Shown here in pieces: positions 15,553 to 31,004 of a stretch of 64,000 nt of DNA. The notes under the pieces were generated by a model. The model saw only the letters and a program-made list of their open reading frames with translations. It ran no database searches and had not been told where the DNA came from. The stretch spans positions 96,001 through 160,000 of the forward strand of contig JBHLMN010000004.1 of NCBI GenBank assembly GCA_048938105.1, read 5' to 3'. The position numbers were made by a program, and so were the translations under genes. This stretch comes from Promethearchaeota archaeon. Its GTDB lineage: Archaea; Asgardarchaeota; Heimdallarchaeia; Hodarchaeales; Hodarchaeaceae. Each line of letters opens with the position of its first letter. Position 1 is the first letter of the stretch.

Positions 15553-16830
15553 TTATTTCATTAATTGTTCAGCTATATCATCCTTAGCTTCAGCTATCTC
15601 TTTTTGGATCTCTAGATTAGTATTTCTTTCATTTGTCATTTGTTTGGTTTTTTCATCAATCCTTTTAATGATATTTAAATCAAATTGATTGAGCCTAGTC
15701 TTCTCTTTAGTTGAATGATTCAGATTAGAGAAGTCACCTTTAACACTATCCCCACGCTCTGCTGTTTTGATTTCATTTATTCGCTCCTGGTCCACACTAG
15801 CAAGTCTATCAGCTGTGACTAAATTAGATGTTTCTAAGGGATTTTCACCTAAAAATACTTCAAGTTGGCGTTCATTATACTTTCTTAATTGATGGATTTC
15901 CTCTGGGGAAAGATCAGGTATCTGTGGATCATATGAGGAGTCTGGTAGTAAATCTTCCATGATTTTCGACTCGTCCATTACATTGTGTCTTTTTTTAGAT
16001 TCAGTTTCCGTCCTTGGAGAAGATGGAATTGTATTTTGGGAATTATTGTTTTGATTAATTTTTAGATGAGGAATGACATCCCTATTCTCAACCTTCTTAG
16101 AGGTGTAAGTTGGGGGTTGTGGAAATGTGTTATTTGAGGGAGAAGGAGGAGGGGATTGAGAAGATCTATCGAGAAAAGCACCATGATAATCATGGGTTCC
16201 GTTCTCTTCTCGTTGGAGATCAGAGGATAATAATGGAGTAAAAACCAATCCAGGAATGATTTTCTCAATCGCATTTTGAAAGTCCAAGCTACGTTCACGA
16301 ATATTAAAATGAAAGTCTTTTAGTTGATTCAGTGAGGATAATAACTGAGTATAATTACACTCAGGGTAATCTAATGTAAGATTTAAGATAGTATTACCAG
16401 AATCTTCAATGATTCGGAATTGATGTCCTTGAAGATTTTTCAAGACGGAAAGACGGAAGTCTTGAGGTTTCCTATCAACCTGAAAATTTATCAACACGGT
16501 TGTTAGGTTCTCTTTTTGGGAGTATAAGATAATAGCTTCTGGAATATCATCCAATTGAAAACGATCTTGGGTTGTTGGGAGATTGGTAAAATGAAAGGTC
16601 TCCAACTGGTGCTTAATATCTACATTATCCAAAATAAGGCCGAGAAAATATCCAACAGACCCCAGTACTAATACCATGAGAACACTTGCATCCGTAACAT
16701 AATAAAACAGGCATCCACAGAGAAAACCGATAATTGCGGTTAGCACACTGCGCTCTAACATTAATATTTCATCCATTATATGATATTTTGTTCCAGAGTA
16801 TTTATACTCAAAATCAGAGCTACTGGTCAT
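15553..16830 (-). CDS. Two-TM membrane protein with a cytoplasmic domain and disordered C-terminus
   Basis: N-terminal TM hairpin, Pro/Ser-rich linker and terminal coiled-coil; starts 8 nt downstream of the helicase stop. Confidence 0.7.
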   Translation of the reverse strand: MTSSSDFEYKYSGTKYHIMDEILMLERSVLTAIIGFLCGCLFYYVTDASVLMVLVLGSVGYFLGLILDNVDIKHQLETFHFTNLPTTQDRFQLDDIPEAIILYSQKENLTTVLINFQVDRKPQDFRLSVLKNLQGHQFRIIEDSGNTILNLTLDYPECNYTQLLSSLNQLKDFHFNIRERSLDFQNAIEKIIPGLVFTPLLSSDLQREENGTHDYHGAFLDRSSQSPPPSPSNNTFPQPPTYTSKKVENRDVIPHLKINQNNNSQNTIPSSPRTETESKKRHNVMDESKIMEDLLPDSSYDPQIPDLSPEEIHQLRKYNERQLEVFLGENPLETSNLVTADRLASVDQERINEIKTAERGDSVKGDFSNLNHSTKEKTRLNQFDLNIIKRIDEKTKQMTNERNTNLEIQKEIAEAKDDIAEQLMK

Positions 16831-16838
16831 AGTGGCTA

Positions 16839-19628
16839 CTAGTGGAGAGTTTGAGCGAACTGATTGTAATCATCGCCTAAAGGGATCTCCATTCCTTCAA
16901 GAATGTACATGAGAAGAGACCGTGCTCCAAATTTATCCAATTTGGTGTTATTATGACTACAGCGAGGTAGAAATGTGCATTTCGGACATCCTTGAGGATC
17001 TTTACATTCACAAGCCAAAATATCATAAGCTCTGGTGAATAGCTCGGAGAGATGATCCAAAAGCATAGCACAGACTCCTGAACCATTAGCTTGGTCAAAC
17101 AGTAAAACATAGCCTTGGGGAATTAAGGCTAATCCTCCAATTTCACTGAGCTGCCCCCCAATAAAGGGCAGACTAGCGTGGAGAAGGACATGAACCAAGG
17201 TATGCAACGCAGCTCTAAAAGTACTATGATCAGAACCTATAATATCTGTAAAAAGAGTTGGAACCTGAAAAAGGAGGCCTTTGGAATGGGAGGAATAATA
17301 GAGAGGATCACGAAGTCTATTCATGGAAGTACCATTCGGAGACTCTAAAACATAGCCAAAAACCGTCTGAAGGACCTTTGTTTCAACTGATACGACTTCT
17401 AGTCCAAAGACATGATGATGAGTATGGAGGGTCAAGATCTCTGGTTTTAGCGAGGAGAGAGGATAAGTATTTCCCCACACACTCTTTGGCTTGATAAGCT
17501 CTGCTACCCCTCGTATTCCGTTAAAATAAAAACTAATCACTTGATATCGTGTGCCCCCAGAATAATAAAACGCCCCAGGATATAGTTCTAACATAGCAAT
17601 AGGCATCACACGTTTTCCGATTTTTCTTCCCCCACGTATTTTTATCACCACCTCGTGGTTCCTCCCTCGAATCGAATATCTCCGTGCTTGTTCTTGTCCT
17701 TCTTGCGTTGGCAGGAGAATGGATTCATCTACCTGATTCAGAAGATTTTCTGCTACTAATCTACTAAGGATGGGAGCATATTCAGGAAACTCACTCACAT
17801 CAATGGGATGATCGAGGGAGGCACATAGTAACTGGTTTTCTGTGACGTTAGGATTGTCGGGGTCAAAAAATACTTCTTCTATGTCTTGATAATACCGCTT
17901 GGGGTATCGATAATAGTAGTTAGAAATTGGATCTTCGCTATTTAGATGAATGATTGCTACTGCTTCTTGGCCCTTCCGACCTGCCCTTCCGATTCTTTGC
18001 ATAGCACGATTTACTGCAATAGGAGGCGTAATAACAATGTCTAAATCTCCAATATCGATTCCCAATTCAAATGTGGGTGTAGCTACCAATAAATCGATTA
18101 TACTGTCTTTGAAATCAGTTTCAACCTGTTCTCGGATTTTCTTGTCTAGTCCTGCCCGATGGATACCAACTCTTTTTGCAGTCCCTCCCAGCTTCTGATA
18201 TAAGATTTCGGCATTGCGATGCGAGTCTTGAAATACCAACGTCTTACCATGATATTTGATGCTGTTGACAAGACTTGTTACACTATCCAAAGTCGACATT
18301 CCTTCAAAGGGAGCTACCATTAAGAAGTGTAAACGGCCCCGTCGTCCATTCTGACATTCGATTACTGTGATAGGCCGATCGAGCAATTTTGAGGCAAACG
18401 ATTGCGCATTGGCAACTGTAGCTGAGGCTCCAATAAATTGTAGTTTTGTTTGTATTATTCGTTCTAAACGGCGCAATATGAAGTACATGTTTGAGCCAAA
18501 AGTTCCAGTATACGAATGGATTTCATCTAAAATGACGATTTTAAGGCCTGCGAGTAAATCCTGGAAATAACTGCTATTTTTCCCGATTCCTAAGTGATAA
18601 TGCAAAATATCAGGGTTAGTAATCAAAATTTCAGGGGGATCAGCATAGATTTTTTTCCGCCAATAGTGGCTAGTGTCTCCATCAAAGACTCACACTGACA
18701 AGCCTAGAAGGGATGCGAAATCCTCAATTTTCCGAAGTTGATCTTTAGCCAAGGCTTTCATCGGATAGATCAAAAGTAATTGTACTCCACAGTCCTTATA
18801 CTCACGAATCTTGAGTAGTGTTGGAAGAAGGAACGCCTCGGTCTTACCATTCCCTGTGGGGGCAACAATGCACACATCTTGATCCTTTTGAATCATGGTT
18901 ATCGCTTCTTCTTGAAATTGGAAAAAGTGAGTGATTTCCCGTTTCTTTAACGCTTTAACAAGATTAGGGTCGTTTAAAATGTCAATTCTCTTTCCTATCT
19001 CCCCAGGTTGGTTTTCAAACAGACGATAATCAACTATTTGATGCTGTGCAAATTGGATTATTTTTTGGATAGGTGTTGGGAGATCCTTAATGGGAATGTC
19101 AAACCGATTATGGAATTCAGTCAGTGTGATGACACTTTTCGGAGCCTTACTTTGGATAGTCAGTCCATCCTGAAGACCTAGCTCCTGATGAGATGGCAAT
19201 TTTTTCAATTTTCCTGAACTCGCAAGGCGAAGTTCTGTTGCCTTTTGTAGGCAAGCATTTCCCCCCGTCAGGGAATAATATTTTTGTAAACAGAACTCTC
19301 CTTTCCGAACGTCTCTCTGCTTAAAATAGAGTGAAGATAACTGCTTCCATGTTTCCCTATGCGTGTTATTTAATTGTAATATTCGGCCAAACGCCTTCTT
19401 GGCATCACTAATTTGTTTGAATTTCTGAAAGTGATTAGCGATTTCCGTGAGTAACTCAACAGACGGGGTGGGATTCTCTGAAGCTACAATGGCTCTAAAC
19501 TCTGCTAAGATGTCTTCAAGATCACGAAATTCCTGATAATCCTCTATAGCGGAACGATAGCGTGTCCACAAGTTTTTTTTGTTGTCCCCATGAATAGTCA
19601 TGATTTCATCAATGATGATTATTAACAT
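16839..19628 (-). pseudogene. Hrq1/MrfA-like DEAH helicase with DUF1998 Zn domain and N-terminal TPRs, interrupted by one in-frame TGA at 18692-18690 (nonsense mutation, readthrough or sequencing error)
   Basis: Motifs APTGNGKT, YPMKALAKDQ, DEIH, SAT, ATPTFELGIDIG, QRIGRAGR and CECKDPQGCPKC. The frame continues across the stop: LLGLSV*VFDGDTSHYWRKKIYADPPEILITNPD. Confidence 0.85.
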
Positions 19629-19715
19629 TCACTTATGAATGCGAAAATACTTTGAACCATAATACTGTGTAACAACCTTTATTTTAACCAAGTTATACCT
19701 TAGAGCGATTCAATG

Positions 19716-22319
19716 TTATTCTTCTTTCTTTTTCACTTTTAACTCCTCAAGGAGGGAGCGTTGTTGGGTATGTAGGGTATAATATAGATCGAAAATCCCT
19801 GTTTTAGGATAAAGTGTTAATCCCAGTTCACGGGAAAACTTTTGCAAGCGTATTAAGTTATCATCAGGGAGAAAATCGTCTAGGTTTTTTTCAGGCCTTG
19901 AAGAAATGGCTGAAGCTTCTAATGCTTGATGGAGTTCTTCGGAGTTTGATTGTTGTTGGAGATGGCTGATCTCAAGTAGTAAGTTATTGACCATTGAGTG
20001 AGCTAGATCAAATAAATGGCGAAAATCCTGCCATTCTAATGAGTCAATCATATGTAAATCGTGGTATTCCGCAATTCGTAACCATGGAATGGAGGTGGCT
20101 CGAAGATAACGAACATAATTGACTAGACTACCTACCAAGTTTTTGACTTTTGTATTTGTCCTCTCCCTGTCGGCTTGGGAAGACGAAATATCAAAGTATG
20201 ATTCTAATCGCTGCAACTCTTGGCTGACTGCGTGAACCATGTCATGGGTAAGCGGAGCAGGGAGCTCATTGACGAAATCCAGCTGCGTTTGATAGTATTC
20301 TCGTCCTCGTTCTGTGATCGTCCAATAGGTGCTACCACTCTCTAAACCTGTGGTAAATAAGCCAAGTGACTGAAATTGGTCTAGCGCGAGCACCCCTTGC
20401 TTATCTTCCTCAATTAATCCCATGACTTCATCCACCTGACGTGGTTGGTAAATAAGCAGTTTCAAGAGCTTCATAAGTAGTTCATATTTTATGGGAGTTA
20501 ATCCCAACGTTTCTGACCCACGTTGCTTCGCCTCTGGAATAAATATGGGTTTAAAATCAATTGGACAGAAGTATTTCAGTTTGAAATGGTAAGCATTATT
20601 CTGGGGACTATCTTCACGGAAGAGGAGCCCCTCTCCTTCAGCAATCCCTACAAACTGTTGTTGGGTGTATATAGGGGATTTATGGGTGAAAGAAATTTCG
20701 TGTGATGTGAGGAGTAATTCCCGATCTTGTGCACTCGCGAGCTTCAGATAAATACTGTTCTTGATCTCTTCAAAGTTATCCATATTCGAAGCTAATGCCT
20801 GTAAGCTTTGGCTTCCAAGCATCATGATGTTATCGCGAGCGATGGTTTTACATGCATCCACCACAATGGATGAAATGATTTCCCGCTGACGGCTATAAGC
20901 TGTTCGTCTACTAAGGAATTCAGCTGCGTGTGTTAACACTACGCATCCATTTTTCATATTCTGTGAGAGGTAATGAAGGAGAAATCCAATAGTTGCGCGA
21001 CGAATAAGTGGTGGTTGAGCACCAAATTGAAAAAATGTTGCTGTTCTGTCCCTAACTAATGTGTTACTATAATGGCCCATGAATGCAGCATAATTAACTT
21101 CGGGAAACGACCGAAATTGCTCAAGAATACCTGCCAAGGCTTCAATAGCCATCATGTCTGCAAACATCATGTCTATCCCTTCTGTGTTGACTTGTACATC
21201 ACTCTCATTTCCCCCTCCAATACTCAACTTCACTTCTTGTAATGTAAATAATGAATTCGATTCCGCAGTCTTTTTGATTTGTGCTTCTAATGGTACTGAG
21301 TACCGTGCTGTAAGATATTCTGAAGTATGTAAAGAGCTGAGGAGAATTTGACTGATGAGATGCGATTTCCATGCTGCTCGCGCTTTGGCTGTCGTTTTTT
21401 TCCCACTTGCTGAAATAGGGATGATAACATCACATAGGTTGAGATGGATATTTGTTCCTAAGCGAAACAATTGTAGGTGGAAATCAGGAGGAGGACTGGC
21501 CTGAAAGTGCTTAATGAGACCATTGAGTTCGCTATAGGTATCGATAACGAAAATTTGGCGGGTAGAGTCAGTTCCCGCTAATGAGGCAATCAGTCGTTGG
21601 AGAATGGTAAGTACTTCGGTATTGGTTGAGCCACAGACGAGAACGGATCCTGTACGTAACGCTGGGAATCCTACTGGCAGCGCGGGGTTTGTAATCTGTG
21701 TACCTACCTTATGTACAACAGGTAGATCAGGGGCAACATAATGTTGGATGTGTCTCGATGGCACTCGATCCAATCGGAGAAATGGCTCAACCCACTTAGA
21801 TTGAAACCCTCTATAACCTTTAAAAACCGTGATACCTTCAGGTACACGTTCCCCATGGAAATGCACCCGAATGAGTCTTTCCCCACTCACTAGGGTAACT
21901 TGACATCCACTTGCTTCGAGAATGGTATGAACCATTGAACGCCGCTTTACGAATGCTTTTCGGGCATCTTGGACAATAGTTGGCAGTATTCGCTCTGATT
22001 TCACCCAGAATTTATACGAGACACGCACAAGGAGAAGTAAGGCGGTATGAGAGTCATCTCTATCATTCTGTTTTGATTTGGTGAATTGTGCGGGAAAAAT
22101 TTCTCGAATAACTTCGACTCCAGGATGATTGGTAGCATAAAACAGCGTTTGTGAGGCATTCTTAATGTCCTTGCGTGGTTGTAGAGCAAATATTGAGATC
22201 AACCCTGCCAGTGGGGCCCATGGGATGAATACTTTATCATAATCAATTTTTTCCAAGATAAAGAGGGTGGATTTATCCTCCAACACTTTAGACGCAAGCT
22301 TCGTGTGCCTGATAGCCAT
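19716..22319 (-). CDS. Catalytically degenerate VirB4/HerA (DUF87)-like P-loop protein with a C-terminal wHTH
   Basis: Motif order matches HerA/VirB4, but Walker A reads GSTNTEV and Walker B reads VVLTHAAEF. Also IFVIDTYSEL, MLGSQ, IYLKLASAQD, GEGLL and wHTH wing WTITERG. SD AGGAG. Confidence 0.6.
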   Translation of the reverse strand: MAIRHTKLASKVLEDKSTLFILEKIDYDKVFIPWAPLAGLISIFALQPRKDIKNASQTLFYATNHPGVEVIREIFPAQFTKSKQNDRDDSHTALLLLVRVSYKFWVKSERILPTIVQDARKAFVKRRSMVHTILEASGCQVTLVSGERLIRVHFHGERVPEGITVFKGYRGFQSKWVEPFLRLDRVPSRHIQHYVAPDLPVVHKVGTQITNPALPVGFPALRTGSVLVCGSTNTEVLTILQRLIASLAGTDSTRQIFVIDTYSELNGLIKHFQASPPPDFHLQLFRLGTNIHLNLCDVIIPISASGKKTTAKARAAWKSHLISQILLSSLHTSEYLTARYSVPLEAQIKKTAESNSLFTLQEVKLSIGGGNESDVQVNTEGIDMMFADMMAIEALAGILEQFRSFPEVNYAAFMGHYSNTLVRDRTATFFQFGAQPPLIRRATIGFLLHYLSQNMKNGCVVLTHAAEFLSRRTAYSRQREIISSIVVDACKTIARDNIMMLGSQSLQALASNMDNFEEIKNSIYLKLASAQDRELLLTSHEISFTHKSPIYTQQQFVGIAEGEGLLFREDSPQNNAYHFKLKYFCPIDFKPIFIPEAKQRGSETLGLTPIKYELLMKLLKLLIYQPRQVDEVMGLIEEDKQGVLALDQFQSLGLFTTGLESGSTYWTITERGREYYQTQLDFVNELPAPLTHDMVHAVSQELQRLESYFDISSSQADRERTNTKVKNLVGSLVNYVRYLRATSIPWLRIAEYHDLHMIDSLEWQDFRHLFDLAHSMVNNLLLEISHLQQQSNSEELHQALEASAISSRPEKNLDDFLPDDNLIRLQKFSRELGLTLYPKTGIFDLYYTLHTQQRSLLEELKVKKKEE

Positions 22320-22361
22320 TTCTTCTAGACTCCTAGTTCATCGTATATGATTCCCTCTCTT

Positions 22362-22380
22362 CCTTTTTATATTCAAGATT
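22362..22380 (-). promoter_or_regulatory. Cluster promoter motif copy AATCTTGAATATAAAAAGG
   Basis: TATA about 45 nt upstream of ATG 22319; matches the other copies. Confidence 0.65.
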
Positions 22381-22720
22381 CAATTATGTTGAAGATATTT
22401 GCTGAAGTCGTCTTTCAAGGTATATTTTGTAGCTGAGTGACTAATTAATTTCAGTAAAATGAGTATTCACTTGTCTTAATTTGTGGATTTTATGTTTAGC
22501 TTCAATTCATTTAATCCTCTTATTTCGTGTTGTTTTCTCATCCTTTACCTTACACTGCTATAGAACGCTTCACATGGGTTCAAATCGCTCTCTGTTCTTC
22601 AAACTCCTCAATAGCATTGAAAAGTATGTCTTTGATAGTTTTGGGAGTATCGGATGCAATGATAGAATATATCAGGCGTTCTTCTTCTAAGCTCTCAATT
22701 TTAATCAATGCTATTCACTC

Positions 22721-23518
22721 TCATTCAAAAATCAGTAATTCTAAATCGCTATGATCACAAGTGCTCCACTTCAAGGCTCGTTTCCTTCCATATTGTGTTA
22801 TAGTAGTTTTAAAGTGAAAATATGTCAGTAAGGTATCTAAGAGTGTTTCAAAGAAGCAATCCGAGGAACTTGAGCATAATAGACACTGATCACAATCAAT
22901 GGAATACTGAGTAGCTCGTCTCTCGATATGATTTCCATTTAGCGAATCAAGAATTCTATCAATAATTGTAAGCACATCACGCCTCTGTTGAATTGCATCT
23001 GCTAATTGGAATCTTTGAAGAAGCCTTTGAGCCACCAATATACCTAAATCTTCTAAATCTTTTGCTAAAAAGTCGTTTTCACTGATTAACCGTTCATTCT
23101 GCAACACCATCCCCAACTCAAGTCGTGTGTTGAGTCTGACTAAGTGTTCTCTCACTTTATCCTTGAAGGTATCAAAGATCCGTAGATTGAGGACAATTTC
23201 ATCTTGCCATTGTATTTCAGGAAAATTTCGGAAGAACTCGTGGATCAAGTACTCGAAGTCAGCCTCACACCAAACAGGATTAATGGTGGAGTCCAGCGCA
23301 AGCATAAAAATTAAATCATTTTGTTTCCTGAACATAAATGTGACCTTGGCCATTTGGAGAGCATTAATGGTATCCTCCTCGACTTGACTCACAAAGCTGT
23401 AGAGTGCACTGATTAAACTTGAACGGAGGAAACTATCAGAATCACTTTCATGGTGAGGTAGTTGAACTTGGAAAAGCATCAAACCATGGTCAAGAACACA
23501 AAGAAATTCACGGATCAA
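22721..23518 (-). CDS. Longin-domain protein with a C-terminal Cys-rich V4R-like domain
   Basis: Longin pattern GLMLF...LRSSLISALYSFVSQV...IFMLALD; C-terminal CDQCLLC-x5-CFF; SD GGAGGT. Confidence 0.6.
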   Translation of the reverse strand: MIREFLCVLDHGLMLFQVQLPHHESDSDSFLRSSLISALYSFVSQVEEDTINALQMAKVTFMFRKQNDLIFMLALDSTINPVWCEADFEYLIHEFFRNFPEIQWQDEIVLNLRIFDTFKDKVREHLVRLNTRLELGMVLQNERLISENDFLAKDLEDLGILVAQRLLQRFQLADAIQQRRDVLTIIDRILDSLNGNHIERRATQYSIDCDQCLLCSSSSDCFFETLLDTLLTYFHFKTTITQYGRKRALKWSTCDHSDLELLIFE

Positions 23519-23589
23519 TTTTGAGAACCTCCAAAAGTAAAATTAACCATATTTTCGACCAGAAATCTATTTAACTCGAGTTTCACTAC

Positions 23590-24477
23590 TCAGTCCTCCC
23601 ACTCATAATCCTCGTCTAAGTCATGAAACTCAGCCTCTGTTGAGCTCACAAGTACACCCTTCTTTGATTTGAAAGGGACGAAGAACACTTGTGGCCTATT
23701 TAATTTCCCATGGAGCGCCAATAGCGCCACCAGTAATAATCCCCACAAATAAATGATAAACGCCACAGTGCCTATCAATACAGCGATCAAGAAGTCTTCT
23801 GTCCGCCAGAATGTGTCTAGGGTGAAAATTATTAGGACAAGGACACTGTTAAAAAGAAAAACAGGCCGAATATTCAGATTCAAAATGATCGTATTGATAA
23901 CGGACAACCAGTCATTCATTGTGGGCATCATGACGCCAAAAATCCCCACAAAAAAGTAGAAGTGGAGTGCGGCGCCAGCAACTGTAAGAAACACCTGAGA
24001 AAGTGGAGTGATCAGTGCCAAAGGAGTGATTAATATGTACCCTACCAACAATACCCAGCCAAACCGACTGGGAGCCATCGCGACTCGTCGTGCATAGTCA
24101 ATACGATTGACCGAGATAATAAGCATAGCGTTCTCATCGAATCGTCCAAGGCCAGTCGAAAGACTTGAACGGATGTGATGTTGGTCGTAAAGATCATCAA
24201 TGTCTTCGCTTTCCTCTTCTTTTTGTTCTAGGTCACGATAAATCTCCTTTGCCATGAACACATGTAGGTACACATGAAGGAAACGAAAAGGAAACCAAAG
24301 GATATTAGCAATCCGTTTCAGAAATGGGAGGATATGCAGGATCAATTGTAATAGCATATACATAAATAGTTGTTTGATAAAGAAGAGTATTAGATCCCGT
24401 GGGTCGAGGATTTCATGTACATACCAGTCAAAAAAACCCAGTAATCCTAAAGCAATCAGATCAAAGACAGTACTCAT
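23590..24477 (-). CDS. Membrane protein, M50-like zinc peptidase fold with degenerate HExxH
   Basis: PFRFLHVYLH (V in place of E), RVAMAP and MPTMND motifs; multiple TMs. Confidence 0.5.
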   Translation of the reverse strand: MSTVFDLIALGLLGFFDWYVHEILDPRDLILFFIKQLFMYMLLQLILHILPFLKRIANILWFPFRFLHVYLHVFMAKEIYRDLEQKEEESEDIDDLYDQHHIRSSLSTGLGRFDENAMLIISVNRIDYARRVAMAPSRFGWVLLVGYILITPLALITPLSQVFLTVAGAALHFYFFVGIFGVMMPTMNDWLSVINTIILNLNIRPVFLFNSVLVLIIFTLDTFWRTEDFLIAVLIGTVAFIIYLWGLLLVALLALHGKLNRPQVFFVPFKSKKGVLVSSTEAEFHDLDEDYEWED

Positions 24478-24739
24478 TATGCATCCCTAACCTATCCTTT
24501 GACTTCATGAATGTATAGTAATGAATCAAACGTTCTCTCTCTAAAGCGGCAAGTGCATACGATAACTGAGTTTCTACATCCGTTAGAATATGAAGTAAAG
24601 TATCGACCACTGACAGATAGTCTGGGAAGGCTGGTATGGTCTGTATCTGATAGAGGTCGGTTAAGAATTGGAGGAACTCCTGAAGAGTACCCTGAAGTTC
24701 TTGTACCCAGTATCCTAGACTAGTCTTTTCTATCAACAT
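24461..24739 (-). CDS. Small helical hypothetical protein
   Basis: Has a promoter motif copy upstream and overlaps the start of the next gene. Confidence 0.6.
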   Translation of the reverse strand: MLIEKTSLGYWVQELQGTLQEFLQFLTDLYQIQTIPAFPDYLSVVDTLLHILTDVETQLSYALAALERERLIHYYTFMKSKDRLGMHNEYCL

Positions 24740-24768
24740 AATATCTCAAAAGACTATTCTGGAGTACT

Positions 24769-24786
24769 CCTTTTATACTAAAAATC
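24769..24786 (-). promoter_or_regulatory. Cluster promoter motif copy GATTTTTAGTATAAAAGG
   Basis: TATA about 32 nt upstream of ATG 24739. Confidence 0.7.
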
Positions 24787-24976
24787 AACATGCAAAAAGG
24801 GAAATGGTTCCAATGTTCATAATTAGAAACTCAATATGTAGAAGGATATAATTAAGTGAGGGATAAGTCCTAAATTCACAAAAGGCGATTAAACGAGGAA
24901 ATTAGTTATTTCAAAATAGGTTCCAGGCTTTAAATGATCTATCACTATAATGCAATTGATAATCATTCTTAGTTAT

Positions 24977-25495
24977 TTAAGCCTCTCCCTTCGAGTGACT
25001 GTTACGGGAGCGTTCCCATAAAGGAAGAGTTGAAAAATGTATATGATATCGTTTATTCATTGCACGAATTACTTCTTTCCGTACTTCAGGTAGTATTAAT
25101 TGCTTTTTCGCATGGAGTCGTACTCTGAGCGCTCCTTCTTTTGAGATTGTTATTATTCCTACTCCTGTTTCTTCAGCCCACGACAGTTGTTGCTTTTTGG
25201 TGATAGAGTCAAGGATTTCAAATTGCTCCTCTGGACAAACCAGATAACAGTAGTCACAAAATTTCCGGTATAATACAGGATGTTGGAGATGTAGCTGTGT
25301 TTCTGCTTCAAAGAAGTGGATAGAACTGTCAATTTGGCTTATTGCTGCTAGATCAATTCGGAACTGCTCTTGGTCAATCATTCTTTGTAGATCCAAGTGT
25401 TTTGAAGTGATTTGCAACTCCAGATACGTCTGAAAGTGTACTTGTTTGACTAAAATGGTTTCAAGTCGTATGATCAGTTCTTTCTCTGACAACAT
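24977..25495 (-). CDS. PD-(D/E)xK-like (MmcB-like) nuclease-fold protein
   Basis: RIDLAA...HFFEAET...YRKFCDYCYLVCP...GVGII; ExE in place of ExK. Confidence 0.5.
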   Translation of the reverse strand: MLSEKELIIRLETILVKQVHFQTYLELQITSKHLDLQRMIDQEQFRIDLAAISQIDSSIHFFEAETQLHLQHPVLYRKFCDYCYLVCPEEQFEILDSITKKQQLSWAEETGVGIITISKEGALRVRLHAKKQLILPEVRKEVIRAMNKRYHIHFSTLPLWERSRNSHSKGEA

Positions 25496-25522
25496 AATTA
25501 GTCATATTCGATTCTTAGTTTC

Positions 25523-25541
25523 GATTTATATAATCAAAATG
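25523..25541 (-). promoter_or_regulatory. Cluster promoter motif copy CATTTTGATTATATAAATC
   Basis: TATA about 30 nt upstream of ATG 25495; a more divergent copy. Confidence 0.5.
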
Positions 25542-25636
25542 AGTCTTTTGAGTTCTTTTTTACTTCAAAGTGAGACTTTCGAGTTCTTAAGCATCATTAA
25601 GAATTCTAGGTAGAGGATAACTACTTTTCAGGTGTA

Positions 25637-25903
25637 TTGATTTTGACTAGTTCTCATAGTATTTCTGGACCTAATCTCCCCTTTCTTGATGAGATTTTTT
25701 GTAACAGCCCTTTGTGTCAGATTTGTGAATATGCTAGTGTATCAGGGGGTGTTTGTTTATTATTACTGAATAGAAGGTTCCCTGTTAATCTAATCGTGAA
25801 AGACTCACAAGTTGTGAGTTGCTCAGCCCATCGGAACTGGATCCAGTCGTTAGACAATGAGAAATTATCTAGTCAAATAGATAGCCACAAATTTTCTGGT
25901 TAG
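25637..25903 (+). CDS. Small Cys-rich putative metal-binding protein
   Basis: C-x4-C-x2-C-x9-C...CxxH pattern; SD AGGTG; ends 8 nt before the Hef-like gene. Confidence 0.55.
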   Translation: MILTSSHSISGPNLPFLDEIFCNSPLCQICEYASVSGGVCLLLLNRRFPVNLIVKDSQVVSCSAHRNWIQSLDNEKLSSQIDSHKFSG

Positions 25904-25911
25904 GGATCATT

Positions 25912-27837
25912 ATGACCACACATGACGAATCTCCGCATTTAGAGAAACTTAGGTTTAATCCTTCATTACAAGAACAGCTTCTTCTTCCTAAAGTCCATGA
26001 ACAAAATTTACTAGTAATTTACTCTACAGAAGATACATTAATACGTATTCAGGCATTGATCATTCTTTTTTATTTGAACCAATCCACAAACCATACCTCA
26101 AGAGTTCTTATTCTAACTAAAAGGAATAACCAGGAAAAGTTCCAAACCTTACTCAAAACACATTTAAACCAAAGAACGACAGTTCTTAACGGAACCATAC
26201 TCCCACATGCAAGGAAACTTGACTACAATCGTTATTCAGTGATTTTGTCTACCCCACAAACTACCAAGAACGATCTAGCTGATAATTTCTTCCTATCTGA
26301 TCACTTTTCTTTAATTATAGTCAATCAAGCCGAAATGGCAACATCTTCTAGCTCACTGAGATATTTAGTTAATAAATTAACTAATTTTAGGGTAATTGGA
26401 TTTACTCAGGTGACTAATTCAGACCATTTAGAATCTGTGTGCAAAAACTTGCAGCTAAAGAGAGTGGTTCAGTTAAAGGAACCGCTTTCAACCCTCGAAC
26501 GATCCAATATCCAGCATTACTCGATTCCCTTACCACAGGAATATTTTTTCATTCTGGAAATCCTGGATCAAATAAAGAAACATACATTCGAAGAATTAGC
26601 AAGACTAGGATTTGATGTTTCCTCGAAGAGTACCTATCGAGACATTACTGCGATCCATGAGAGTATTAAAAAAGATAACAATAGGAAAGCTCTTATCTGT
26701 ACAGCAAATCTCCAACGAATTATTATCCTTCAACGTATTATTATTTCCCAAGGCTTTCCTGCTGCTCTTGATTATTTCACAACACTTGAATCACACCTTA
26801 TGAGGGATCAAAATTACCAAGGGAAAAAGGCCATCAGGATTTTTCTTGGGGATATGAAAATAGCGAAGCTTCGAGAGTTTCTTGCTATACACAAACAACT
26901 CCAACATCCTAAATCCCAAATGATCCTTAAAATAATCAATCAATATAGAATAGGGATTTCCATTGTGACCAACAATTACTACAATGCGTCTTTTTTAAAG
27001 AATTATTTAAAGGTAAAGGGCTTTTCTGTACTTCAAATACGTGAACCCATTAGTTCTTTGACGGATATTAATCTCCAACGAGCTCTTTTACCATTCACCG
27101 AACAGAAAGTTCAGATTTGTATCACAAATACTGTCAATGAGCTTATTGCTCGAAATGCTGGAGTAATCATCGCGTATGATGTAAATGCAGGTATCGTTGG
27201 CACTTTGAATAGTTTGGATGTAGACATTCCTAAGGTGTTCTTATTGGCTAAACAAACTAATGAAGAGGCTAGGTTTTTCTATCTCAAAAGATTAGGGCTT
27301 CACTCTCATAAACAGAGTCAGAACTTCAATAACCTCAATGAGACCTTAAAAAGATATCATAGGGAAAATTCTACAATTGCTAATGTTACGGATCCCCAAT
27401 CAACCATTTCTACTAGCGAAGATTCTCATGTCTCCTTAACCTTTAATAGTATTTTGTATGAACTTGGAATACCATATCTTTTCTCACAAAAAGAATACGC
27501 TATTCAATCTGATGATGATGTTAGCTTTCCTGGTTTTATACTCAATAACAAAATTTCTTTTCTTCTCCTCATTCCTGACACGATTGACTTTTTTATGTCT
27601 TCAACACCACAAAAAATCTTTAGTCAACTAAAAAAAGAATTTTCTCATGTACACTTGATTCTTTTACCTGATAGTTTGATGACCCTTAGTTTTAACTTTC
27701 GCTGCGACATTTTACATACAGCAAATCACTTTAGGATATGGATTTCTTTTCTTTTACAAGCTCAAGATATTCCTCAGTTAGTTACACGAATAATTAATAA
27801 GCCATTATATCGTTCTAGTCAACCAGTTTCTCTATAA
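25912..27837 (+). CDS. Degenerate Hef/FANCM-like SF2 helicase with a remnant ERCC4-like C-terminal domain
   Basis: Matches Hef segments (ILSTPQTTKNDL, SLIIV, VIGFT, HPK, LLAKQTNEEARF), but Walker A reads YSTEDTLI and DEAH reads NQAE. Confidence 0.65.
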   Translation: MTTHDESPHLEKLRFNPSLQEQLLLPKVHEQNLLVIYSTEDTLIRIQALIILFYLNQSTNHTSRVLILTKRNNQEKFQTLLKTHLNQRTTVLNGTILPHARKLDYNRYSVILSTPQTTKNDLADNFFLSDHFSLIIVNQAEMATSSSSLRYLVNKLTNFRVIGFTQVTNSDHLESVCKNLQLKRVVQLKEPLSTLERSNIQHYSIPLPQEYFFILEILDQIKKHTFEELARLGFDVSSKSTYRDITAIHESIKKDNNRKALICTANLQRIIILQRIIISQGFPAALDYFTTLESHLMRDQNYQGKKAIRIFLGDMKIAKLREFLAIHKQLQHPKSQMILKIINQYRIGISIVTNNYYNASFLKNYLKVKGFSVLQIREPISSLTDINLQRALLPFTEQKVQICITNTVNELIARNAGVIIAYDVNAGIVGTLNSLDVDIPKVFLLAKQTNEEARFFYLKRLGLHSHKQSQNFNNLNETLKRYHRENSTIANVTDPQSTISTSEDSHVSLTFNSILYELGIPYLFSQKEYAIQSDDDVSFPGFILNNKISFLLLIPDTIDFFMSSTPQKIFSQLKKEFSHVHLILLPDSLMTLSFNFRCDILHTANHFRIWISFLLQAQDIPQLVTRIINKPLYRSSQPVSL

Positions 27838-28009
27838 GAATCGTTCCACTAAACTCTATCATATCCTAGGTTATTTTGATAATCAAACGAAATATCAATA
27901 ATGAAAAAAAAGACTCAGGGAGACTGGATCTGTTCGATTGAATGTGACAATGATCACACCTAAAAGGATTCATTAAGGGAAATGAATTCATATGTTTTCT
28001 TCTTTCTCT

Positions 28010-29752
28010 TCAGCGTAAACCGAATAACCTTTTCATTTTCGCAAAGTAGAGGTCATAGGTATTATATAATGTTTGAAGACTTTGATAAACACGTACTGGT
28101 GGTAACATCGCCCGCATTTTCACTACTCGATAATCTAGAATAAGACTTGCAGCAAAATCCGACTCTGATCTAATTCCTCTCCCAATGGCTTGGGAGATAC
28201 TTCGTGTGACTGGAAGCATAGATATGAGTTTCGCTGTTCGCCACCCCCATTTTTGCTGATACAAAGAGTTGAGTAACCGGTTCGTTGCGTCTGGTCGAGG
28301 AAAGGGGAGTCCTGCTATGATAATCAATGACAATAAGCTTCGATTTGTCTTCGAATCCAGTATTTCAATCCCTTCAGAGAGCTTCCCTCCAATCACCCCA
28401 AATATGAGTTCATGGTTTTTCTCTCTCAATTCATCAATGAAAAAAGGGATTATACCAAGATTTTCGACATACACCTGTGGTATTGAAATATGAGCGAGGA
28501 TTTTTTGTTTCATTTCATGAGATGTGGCAAAGACAATGGTATGAAACGGATTACTGGAGTGCATCCGTTGTATGACGGTAGCCATTGCTTCATATGTTTT
28601 GGCACTTCGTTCAGTGAATTTAGACGTAAATTGACGATGATAAAGTATACCATTCAAACTGAACTGAAAGTCTGAGGGTATTCGAAGCGTAGGATAAGAC
28701 AATCCATATAGTGCCAGATATAGGGATAATGGTGTAAAAGTTCCCGACATCAGGATGACCCGAGTGAAATGCTTGTTCACAAAATCGAATGCTTGATGTG
28801 GGAAAGGATTCAGTTGGAGTAACTTGTTGTCTTCTGATATCCAAATATCTCCTCTTGAAGAAATGAAATCTTTGACTTTTAACAGCTGATTTTTTTCCAT
28901 GAGGGATAATTTGTATTCATGATCCAAGAATGCGTCTAATGCTGCCTCTGACAATGTTCGTGGTCTTTCCACTCTTCCATGATGTGAGCAGATCAACTCC
29001 TGTAACTCATCGATCACTTTTAAGGGGATAATTGTTTGAGCTTTATTTAAATCGTTCGTTGTGATCTCTGTTTCGATATCAGCTGTAAAATTATGCCCCT
29101 CGTCTATAATTGCCATGGTTTGTGGAAAAGAACTGCGTGAAAGAAGCTGGGAGAACATATTTTGAAGATTTTTACTTCGTAAATAGGTGTGTGTGGTAAT
29201 GACTATATTTGAATATGGTATACACCGTTTGATTACATGATAGGGACACCCAAACTCTTTAAACGCCTCTTGAAAAGCCTCAGTCGAAATTGCCTCATCA
29301 TGTGCTGTAATTGGGATTTGTTCGACAATAGCAGGGAAATCTTCCTCTGGAATAGATTTAGTCTGTTCAAGAAAGGGGCATCGTATTTGCCCACAGATCT
29401 TGTGATAGAAGTGGGGGATTTCGTCTCTTTTAATACATAAATCTGCTTTAAGAATGAGAGGAACAGCTGTTAAATAGCCATATTTTCGACTATTTGCGAT
29501 CTTATAAATCTCATTGAGGAATACCTGGAACACTTGTGTCTTCGTTCGAACAAAAATATATAATTGGTAGTTTTTTGATTTTACTAGCGGAAGTGCATGA
29601 ATCAACGCCATAATTGTTTTCCCAAATCCGACTGGGGCATGAATCATTGCTTTTGGATTCTTCTCAACAAATCGGAGAAACTTTGTTTGATAGGCCCGCA
29701 GTTCTGGATGAGGAAAGAGCTGTAGTGCTGGGGGAAGATTAGTATCAATCAT
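28010..29752 (-). CDS. xpd: XPD/Rad3/DinG-family Fe-S helicase
   Basis: Q motif RAYQ, APVGFGKT, four Fe-S Cys (LC..KIC..RCP..GCPY), DEGHN, SGT, SEGIE, GLPFP, QAIGRGIR. An alternative GTG start exists at 29821. Confidence 0.8.
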   Translation of the reverse strand: MIDTNLPPALQLFPHPELRAYQTKFLRFVEKNPKAMIHAPVGFGKTIMALIHALPLVKSKNYQLYIFVRTKTQVFQVFLNEIYKIANSRKYGYLTAVPLILKADLCIKRDEIPHFYHKICGQIRCPFLEQTKSIPEEDFPAIVEQIPITAHDEAISTEAFQEAFKEFGCPYHVIKRCIPYSNIVITTHTYLRSKNLQNMFSQLLSRSSFPQTMAIIDEGHNFTADIETEITTNDLNKAQTIIPLKVIDELQELICSHHGRVERPRTLSEAALDAFLDHEYKLSLMEKNQLLKVKDFISSRGDIWISEDNKLLQLNPFPHQAFDFVNKHFTRVILMSGTFTPLSLYLALYGLSYPTLRIPSDFQFSLNGILYHRQFTSKFTERSAKTYEAMATVIQRMHSSNPFHTIVFATSHEMKQKILAHISIPQVYVENLGIIPFFIDELREKNHELIFGVIGGKLSEGIEILDSKTNRSLLSLIIIAGLPFPRPDATNRLLNSLYQQKWGWRTAKLISMLPVTRSISQAIGRGIRSESDFAASLILDYRVVKMRAMLPPVRVYQSLQTLYNTYDLYFAKMKRLFGLR

Positions 29753-29795
29753 GGTGTTTCCACAGAGAATTTGTGGTAGACATTTCTGGAGGTAG

Positions 29796-30818
29796 TTATT
29801 TGGAATTAAAGTCTCGGACACCCTCGCTGGTAATTGCGAACTCTACTTTCCCATCAGGAAATTCAGGGCTTTTTGTTAATGAGGCAGTTCGTTTGGTTGC
29901 TTTCCCCTTTCGGATGAATATCCGAGTAGTAACCGTATGACCTACAATATTGCCTCCAACAGGCTTATTTGGATCCCCAAAAAATATCGCGTCAGGTTTG
30001 GCGGATACTTGGTTCGTCACGAGACCAATACAATTCATTATTTCAGCCTGTTTAGCAATAAACGCTAAATGTCTCCCAATCAGTTGTTGTCGTTCTGCCA
30101 GTGTTCCACGTCCCACGAACTCACTTCTGAAATGTGACATGAGGGAGTCTACAATTATCAGACCAACGTTTGGAACCATAGTAAGTGCCTCTTCGGTGAG
30201 TGCCATTTGGTGTTCACTATTGTAAGCTCTACCAACCGTAATTCGTGAAAGTACGGTGTCTGGATCTATATCTAATGCCTAAGCTATTTGTACTATTCGA
30301 TTAAAGCGGAATATTCCTTCTGAGTCGATCCAAATCACATCTCGGTCGAGGTATTTAACGCAATTAACTGCCAATTGGTGGGCAATCTGGGTCTTTCCAC
30401 AGCCATTCTCACCAGCGATTTCCGTGACACTTCCCGTTTCAAATCCTCCCCCTATGAGTTCATTGAACGTTTTTGATCCTGTCGTTAATTTTATCCGTGT
30501 TTTTGCTGCTTCCTCGTAATCTGTCCCTTTTTTTAATCCAAGGTCAAACTGTGCTCTTGCTTCACGGATTAGATGAGCTGCAGTTTTCTCCGCAATTCCC
30601 GAAATTTCAGTTAATTGAGCCCGTGTTGCTAGAGCTATCGCTTCTTTGCTTCCATAACCCGCAGTTTCTAGTCGTTGTCTTGTCGTGGGGCCAACGCCTG
30701 TTATTGTTTCTAAGAATGGTTTCTCTGAGGTTGTGTCCTTTTTCTTAACTTTCTTTGTCCTTTTCTCTTCAATTGGCTCAGAACTAATTCCTTCGTCTTT
30801 TGTTTCGACTTTTGCCAT
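29796..30818 (-). pseudogene. radA: RadA recombinase paralog interrupted by one in-frame TAG at 30281-30279 (340 aa if read through)
   Basis: HhH GVGPTT, Walker A GENGCGKT, IVDS, FRSEFVGRGTLAERQQ, TNQV. The frame continues across the stop: RIVQIA*ALDIDPDTVLSRITVGRAYNSEHQM. Confidence 0.9.
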
Positions 30819-30890
30819 CGTTTTTCACTTTATTCTTTTTTCTAGCTATATTGTTGTAAACCTTTGATCTGATTATGATTTAGCTCCCTG

Positions 30891-31004
30891 CCTTTTTATA
30901 CTCAAAATCACCAATTTTTCGAATTTCTAGTACAAAAATATAATTCTCATTCTTACCTTATATATTCAAAATCGATGGGAGAATAGATTTCTAGTATAAA
31001 AGAG
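30891..31004. promoter_or_regulatory. Tandemly duplicated back-to-back promoter module (four motif copies) between radA and the large surface-protein gene
   Basis: Minus-strand copies at 30891-30909 and 30956-30973; plus-strand copies at 30922-30940 and 30986-31004. Both pairs have a 12-nt spacer. Confidence 0.7.

Follow-up and report, generated by a model that had tools for sequence, protein, structure and literature searches.

The in-frame TGA that interrupts an MrfA/YprA/Hrq1-family SF2 DNA helicase gene in this archaeal genome is most probably a very recent CGA-to-TGA nonsense substitution, which would make the gene either a newly formed pseudogene or a loss-of-function allele that still segregates, with no dedicated decoding of the stop. 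We read the codon as the mark of a freshly broken gene rather than of special decoding because a near-identical strain and relatives carry a sense codon in its place. The gene lies in a 64,000-nucleotide stretch (the window) of a 5.85-Mb archaeal genome (35% GC, 65 contigs, tRNAs with introns), together with a RadA/Rad51-type recombinase paralog that is interrupted by an in-frame TAG.

An in-frame TGA divides an MrfA/Hrq1-type helicase gene

The preliminary description of the window reported an in-frame TGA in a 929-aa, 'Hrq1-like' helicase, and the codon is indeed there: the minus strand reads ...TCA GTG TGA GTC TTT GAT GGA GAC..., translated as LSV*VFDGDT, and PPEILITNPD follows in the same frame. 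This TGA is the only internal stop, with the rest of the 929 codons uninterrupted. The frame length therefore stands as first given, but the protein is probably closer to ~920 aa; we take Met10 as the probable start because six relatives have a stop codon at alignment codons 2-9 and database orthologs are ~920 aa long. Coordinates of this and the other features are collected in Table 1.

The encoded protein has an N-terminal extension of ~200 aa, followed by RecA1 (APTGNGKT, DEIH), RecA2 (QRIGRAGR) and a four-Cys MZB/DUF1998 region. The Walker A motif and DExH box of an SF2 core are both present in the translation, with Pfam matches to DEAD and Helicase_C, and the four-Cys zinc domain (CECKDPQGCPKC...C) matches Pfam PF09369 MZB at 35.8 bits, against a cut-off of 24.2. 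NCBIfam equivalog scores fall far under their cut-offs. The best solved-structure match is Bacillus subtilis MrfA/YprA (6ZNP_A, E 5.9e-53, query residues 220-707), so the 'Hrq1-like' label is apt.

Traits of the MrfA/YprA/Hrq1 class include 3′-5′ DNA helicase activity and a role in crosslink repair. MrfA (YprA) of B. subtilis is the mitomycin repair factor A helicase (PDB 6ZNP/6ZNQ/6ZNS), and its eukaryotic relative is Hrq1/RecQ4 (PMC7797055); the family is described there and in bioRxiv 10.1101/2025.09.15.676423. Like MrfA, the Asgard protein combines an SF2 RecA1/RecA2 core containing a DExH box with a C-terminal four-Cys zinc-binding MZB/DUF1998 domain, and, as in mrfA-mrfB, a conserved partner gene follows the helicase gene. 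Unlike MrfA, it has the additional N-terminal region, and the copy here is broken by a stop codon; unlike in mrfA-mrfB, the partner, orf425, could be assigned neither to an exonuclease nor to any other family by searches of ESM Atlas, Pfam, NCBIfam and PADLOC.

The TGA falls within the Pfam DEAD domain, of which profile positions 2-74 are encoded upstream of the stop and 99-164 downstream, and both Helicase_C and the MrfA zinc-binding domain lie beyond it. The N-terminal fragment would be insufficient for helicase activity, judging from SF2 helicase architecture. The first possible restart codon past the TGA is a TTG 22 codons downstream, and low-level near-cognate UGA readthrough could leave some full-length helicase. 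The companion TAG splits the Pfam Rad51 domain (positions 4-81 and 85-243) of one of the five RadA-like genes in the genome, a paralog ~42% identical to the others. That both enzymes are otherwise intact, with one clean stop each, as first described, proved correct.

Table 1. Features of the helicase-RadA paralog cluster (positions are those of the window)
Feature	Position	Strand	Remarks
MrfA/YprA/Hrq1-family SF2 DNA helicase gene	16839..19628	-	929-codon frame, read 19628..16839
Probable true helicase start, Met10	19601	-	
In-frame TGA, helicase codon 313	18692..18690	-	Between motif Ia (YPMKALAKDQ) and the TNPD/motif Ib region
N-terminal helicase fragment	18693..19601	-	~303 aa from Met10; N-terminal extension, Walker A and motif Ia only
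Helicase remainder	16842..18689	-	616 codons, fully open; DExH box, RecA2, MZB zinc domain
Helicase codon 520	18069..18071	-	TTT (Phe) here, CTT (Leu) in X2; L520F, motif V region
Helicase terminator, TAG	16841..16839	-	
425-aa protein (orf425)	15553..16830	-	Directly downstream of helicase; no family found
XPD/Rad3-like helicase	28010..29821	-	Directly downstream of RadA paralog; intact; private Ala566Val
RadA/Rad51-type recombinase paralog	29799..30818	-	340 codons
In-frame TAG, RadA paralog codon 180	30281..30279	-	From GAG (Glu), G-to-T on coding strand
RadA paralog codon 169	30312..30314	-	ATA (Ile) here, ACA (Thr) in X2 and X6; T169I
Promoter-like cluster motif GATTTYKARTATAAA	30895..30909	-	One of five copies
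Other copies of GATTTYKARTATAAA	16801-16815	-	
	24772-24786	-	
	30959-30973	-	
	30986-31000	+	

Orthologs and sister strains carry sense codons

The helicase orthologs are labelled Hodarchaeales/Heimdallarchaeota, which places the genome among the Asgard archaea, and they have a sense codon at the site of the TGA. All 19 orthologs found in the genus have a coding region without a stop, their only stops lying upstream of Met10, and ~45 database orthologs are likewise uninterrupted. The closest relative (88% identical) has AGA at this site, the next ones (L004, L006 and L007) have CGA, and others AAA; 33 of ~44 close orthologs have Arg or Lys here, and the residue among 120 homologs is K, R, E, G, A or S. 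The RadA paralog is similarly intact in 15/15 orthologs from the genus; the closest of them (90% identical) has GAG at the stop position, and the remainder have GAA, CAA or AAA/AAG.

We compared strains by means of Logan contigs, which are assembled rather than raw reads and would not reveal a minority sense allele in the source sample, over the stretch 16800-30900 of the window. In run X1, a sediment sample and the probable source of the assembly, this whole 14.1-kb stretch lies within one 22-kb contig at a word depth of ~15, shows 0 differences from the window and contains both stops; this agreement supports the assembled bases, although it is not independent of the reads behind the assembly and would also be seen if the library itself contained an artefact. 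Run X2, a second sample from the same study, contains a strain that differs from the window at 7 of 7,566 aligned bases. This strain has plus-strand G at 18692, giving CGA (Arg), and C at 30281, giving GAG (Glu), and the same two sense alleles are found in run X6, a mangrove metagenome from a different study with a more divergent strain. Because of these sense alleles in X2 and X6, both stops are derived and private to the assembled strain. An exact-pattern scan of metagenome contigs for either allele at both sites gave no match.

The helicase TGA thus arose from CGA by a C-to-T change on the coding strand, as the preliminary description had proposed and as CGA in X2, X6 and the three orthologs named above bears out. 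The parallel proposal for the RadA paralog, CAG-to-TAG, does not hold, since other strains have GAG and the change is a G-to-T transversion. Sense codons in sequencing data had been named in advance as evidence against decay or recoding of a shared system, and contigs from another sample do carry them. A sense codon in the closest strains and in the orthologs is also what a young pseudogene should display.

Changes private to the assembled strain appear unselected

The two stops are accompanied by other private changes. Seven listed differences to X2 comprise two nonsense, four missense and one synonymous, and an eighth private difference is at leader site 19624. The missense changes include L520F in the helicase, at a position that is Leu in 117/120 homologs (ATPT-L-ELGIDIG), and T169I in the RadA paralog, where 15/15 orthologs have Thr (EG-T-FR motif); the others are XPD A566V and orf867 L79F. 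By contrast, six of the seven listed differences of X2's second, lower-depth contig set and X6 are synonymous. Being mostly damaging, the private changes look unfiltered by selection. About 4-5% of random coding changes are expected to be nonsense, and two among ~8 private SNPs in 14 kb, each in a recombination or repair gene of the same conserved cluster, is somewhat more than this. Six of the eight are C-to-T on the minus (coding) strand. Relaxed selection on the cluster, a genome-wide mutator or bottleneck, and a library artefact are candidate causes of the unselected pattern.

We consider it unlikely that the stop bases are technical, whether as cytosine deamination fixed by low-input amplification or as consensus error, in either case genome-wide. 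The excess of C-to-T on one strand would suit deamination, but the stop in the RadA paralog, a G-to-T transversion, has no deamination signature. The stop alleles are found only in the probable source run, yet an independent k-mer assembly of that run gives the same bases, in a contig without bubble or break. Private changes that look unselected (6 non-synonymous to 1 synonymous) and strike invariant residues would be expected of errors, as would many single in-frame stops in the genome; however, the broken genes that can be identified are accessory (hydrolases, TnpB), as expected under continuing selection. Nor are there any indels relative to X2 in 7.6 kb, and a search around the private SNP sites for a common motif, either of methylation-linked error or of deaminase context, found none, contrary to what methylation-motif basecalling error predicts.

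A biological source of the same pattern can be imagined, though we hold it to be unlikely: an episode of C-to-T hypermutation, coordinated by strand, may have affected the lineage and left unselected changes across its genome, dozens of nonsense codons among them. Its cause could be cytosine deamination in single-stranded DNA or a lost uracil or mismatch repair function, and the two cluster stops would belong to the episode, or even contribute to it.

Linkage in the cluster and the genome-wide rate of in-frame stops

The premise that the helicase and RadA paralog belong to one cluster, and probably one regulon, is a reasonable one, given their kept linkage and a repeated promoter-like motif. 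In at least 10 genomes of the genus a single contig carries both genes, separated by 8-14 kb; orf425 adjoins the helicase in 18/19 genus loci; and the RadA paralog is divergent from an adjoining giant surface-protein gene in 14 loci and is followed by XPD or orf867. The promoter-like motif GATTTYKARTATAAA has five matches in the window, against 0.37 expected by chance. Probable membership of a regulon does not make the stops a regulatory device.

To estimate how common such stops are, we screened the genome for places where a single stop divides two open stretches of at least 60 codons each. Of the 848 junctions found, 42 are spanned by an alignment to one paralogous ORF, with TAA, TGA and TAG all represented, and ~45% of ORFs of at least 150 aa have a paralog that permits such detection; this puts the total at roughly 50-100 genes, or 1-2%. 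Mobile-element families are over-represented among them. A hexamer coding-potential screen gave 85-115 junctions, an inflated figure that is ~45% precise and serves as a rough bound only; among its 20 best candidates, Pfam identified 4 true splits, 5 adjacent-gene pairs and 11 uninformative cases. Single genes split by one stop, as confirmed by Pfam, encode an Ntn-hydrolase, a metallophosphoesterase and TnpB, and probably an amidohydrolase. The high genome-wide rate that the preliminary description had set against its own interpretation is largely what this count revealed.

At 1-2% per gene, the chance of two hits in a 10-gene cluster is roughly 1%, and as a genome contains ~490 segments of this size, a few coincidences should occur; two stops in one cluster are only mildly unusual. 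The same arithmetic bears on whether inactivation of the helicase and RadA paralog was advantageous, the nonsense alleles having been raised by positive selection rather than drift. Two independent knock-outs and two damaging missense changes at 0.09% divergence, in a co-regulated gene set with conserved linkage and a common promoter-like motif, would be in keeping with this, but the 50-100 stop-broken genes genome-wide predict a few such coincidences by chance, and private SNP density is even across the 14 kb, at ~1 per kb. We regard selected loss as quite improbable.

The stops show no sign of recoding

Programmed recoding or readthrough as a shared control of the regulon, whether by Sec, Pyl, a suppressor tRNA, codon context or RNA editing, is extremely improbable: although the two genes are otherwise intact and both stops occupy variable sites on the surface that might accept any residue, the stops are absent from a ~99.9% identical strain (7.6 kb aligned) and from every ortholog. 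The stops are private SNPs, and therefore no selection has maintained them.

The machinery for Sec or Pyl was also looked for in the genome. The best match to the tRNA-Sec model RF01852 (32.9 bits, cut-off 47) is tRNA-Ser(GCU), and neither SepSecS (TIGR03531, best 21.5 against a cut-off of 224.85) nor PylS (TIGR02367, 23.2 against 178.15) was found. This agrees with a published study that detected no tRNA-Sec among Heimdallarchaeia, and Pyl in Sifarchaeia alone (PMC9723677). The present genes resemble the Asgard Sec/Pyl cases of that study in having an in-frame UGA or UAG within otherwise intact Asgard archaeal genes, and differ from them in that tRNA-Sec, SepSecS and PylS were not found here. 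The orthologous residues also differ from those of Sec/Pyl genes, with Arg/Lys at one site and Glu/Gln/Lys at the other instead of Cys or a conserved Pyl position; no Cys occurs at the helicase site among the 120 homologs, as would mark a selenoprotein, nor in any close ortholog.

Aragorn, with introns allowed, called a 'tRNA-Pyl(CUA)' on contig C11, which would be a candidate suppressor. The tRNA is genuine (Rfam, 48.8 bits), but we reject it in that role: it has the same acceptor stem as tRNA-Gln(CUG) of this genome, and an intron at the canonical 37/38 position leaves the anticodon CUG, not CUA, so it is a Gln-type tRNA. Where other genes are broken by TAG, their paralogs have no constant residue opposite the stop (Y, E, Q, S, T and W). 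Reassignment of a stop codon is likewise rejected, because TGA and TAG both end normal genes, some of them in this cluster: TGA terminates XPD and two other cluster genes, and TAG the helicase itself. Open frames of at least 300 codons end in TAA (54%), TGA (27%) or TAG (18%).

The preliminary description also pointed to a loosely similar 3′ context (stop-GNN-TTN-GAT). This does not survive as a signal; the codons GTC TTT GAT after the helicase stop encode conserved VFD and GCA TTA GAT in the RadA paralog encode conserved ALD, and relatives with sense codons share the same or similar downstream codons at both sites, so the context belongs to the intact alleles as well. Of the two explanations offered at the outset, early decay fits the private stops, whereas shared recoding or editing control finds no Sec/Pyl machinery to support it.

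Discussion

We conclude that a CGA-to-TGA change in the assembled strain probably truncates an MrfA/Hrq1-type helicase after motif Ia, and that the GAG-to-TAG change in the RadA paralog would be an independent substitution of the same age. Loss of helicase function would follow, and the cluster may be dispensable in this lineage or under relaxed or ineffective selection. The helicase stop resembles ordinary prokaryotic nonsense polymorphisms and young pseudogenes in being one step from a sense codon (CGA to TGA), confined to one strain, free of any other lesion and accompanied by intact sister strains. It departs from such alleles in nothing essential, although the excess of non-synonymous changes private to the strain, and the bias to C-to-T on one strand, are unusual. 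Only the way in which this lineage has mutated sets the case apart; the stop itself is an ordinary nonsense allele, specific to one strain, in a helicase of known family.

In annotations of this assembly, the helicase and RadA paralog should be marked as pseudogenes or disrupted alleles, and intact sequences should be taken from sister strains. Single in-frame stops elsewhere in this genome should likewise be interpreted as nonsense alleles at the level of the strain rather than as signs of Sec, Pyl or readthrough recoding in Hodarchaeales. A lesser point of biology is that a natural or enriched lineage can lose a conserved set of recombination/repair-like genes that appear to be co-regulated.

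Private changes of the assembled strain

Between window positions 16800 and 30900, the assembled strain differs by mostly damaging private SNPs from the near-identical strain in run X2, a second sample of the same study; two are nonsense, four missense, and one synonymous, and six of the eight private SNPs are C-to-T on the minus strand. This pattern could stem from relaxed selection, from a lineage with a mutator phenotype, or from an artefact of the library. Contigs of run X3, from a different study (2023), duplicate those of X2 in span, depth, and variant (e.g., 21635-22383, with a depth of 6.53 in both); the two runs may be a single data set deposited twice, and they should not be treated as independent samples.

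Interrupted genes and an intron-containing tRNA elsewhere in the genome

A single in-frame stop interrupts three other genes in the same genome (G000), and probably a fourth, an amidohydrolase gene; in each case a Pfam domain or a paralog bridges the break (see table). In two further gene pairs, the downstream gene is in frame with the preceding gene past its stop, and the first ATG, GTG, or TTG lies 66 (Fe-ADH_2) or 82 (ADH_N) codons beyond that stop, with the Pfam domain starting earlier in both; the start codons may have been lost or be non-canonical, or the pairs may be fusions that have been broken.

Aragorn finds only ~20-25 tRNAs in this 99%-complete genome, and labels one on contig C11 tRNA-Pyl(CUA). 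With an intron at the canonical 37/38 position its anticodon would be CUG, and its acceptor stem is that of the tRNA-Gln(CUG) on contig C42; a simple fold gave no clean bulge-helix-bulge motif.

Features in the window and in G000 (C, contig; L, locus)
Feature	Location	Description
Ntn-hydrolase	C42:241718	One in-frame TGA
Metallophosphoesterase	C39:92692	One in-frame TGA
TnpB	C20:54811	One in-frame TAG; Glu there in 92%-identical copies
Amidohydrolase	C35:4126	One in-frame TAA; probable split
Fe-ADH_2 gene (glycerol-1-phosphate-dehydrogenase-like)	C52:399877-401319 (L056)	Downstream gene of pair
ADH_N gene	C32:567-2009 (L057)	Downstream gene of pair
Intron-containing tRNA	C11:135862-135968 (L064:263-369)	Rfam, 48.8 bits
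orf425	Window 15553-16830 (-)	425 aa; directly downstream partner of helicase
641-aa ORF	Window 25912-27837 (+)	Between helicase and RadA/XPD pair

Neighbours of the helicase

The 641-aa ORF weakly matches Hef nuclease in its helicase portion: the NCBIfam model PRK13766 scores 82.8 bits, where the cut-off is 610. Searches of Pfam, NCBIfam, PADLOC, and the Atlas gave no match for the orf425 protein; its pairing with the helicase is kept in 18 of the 19 genus loci, and orf425 may be a functional analogue of MrfB, the partner of MrfA.
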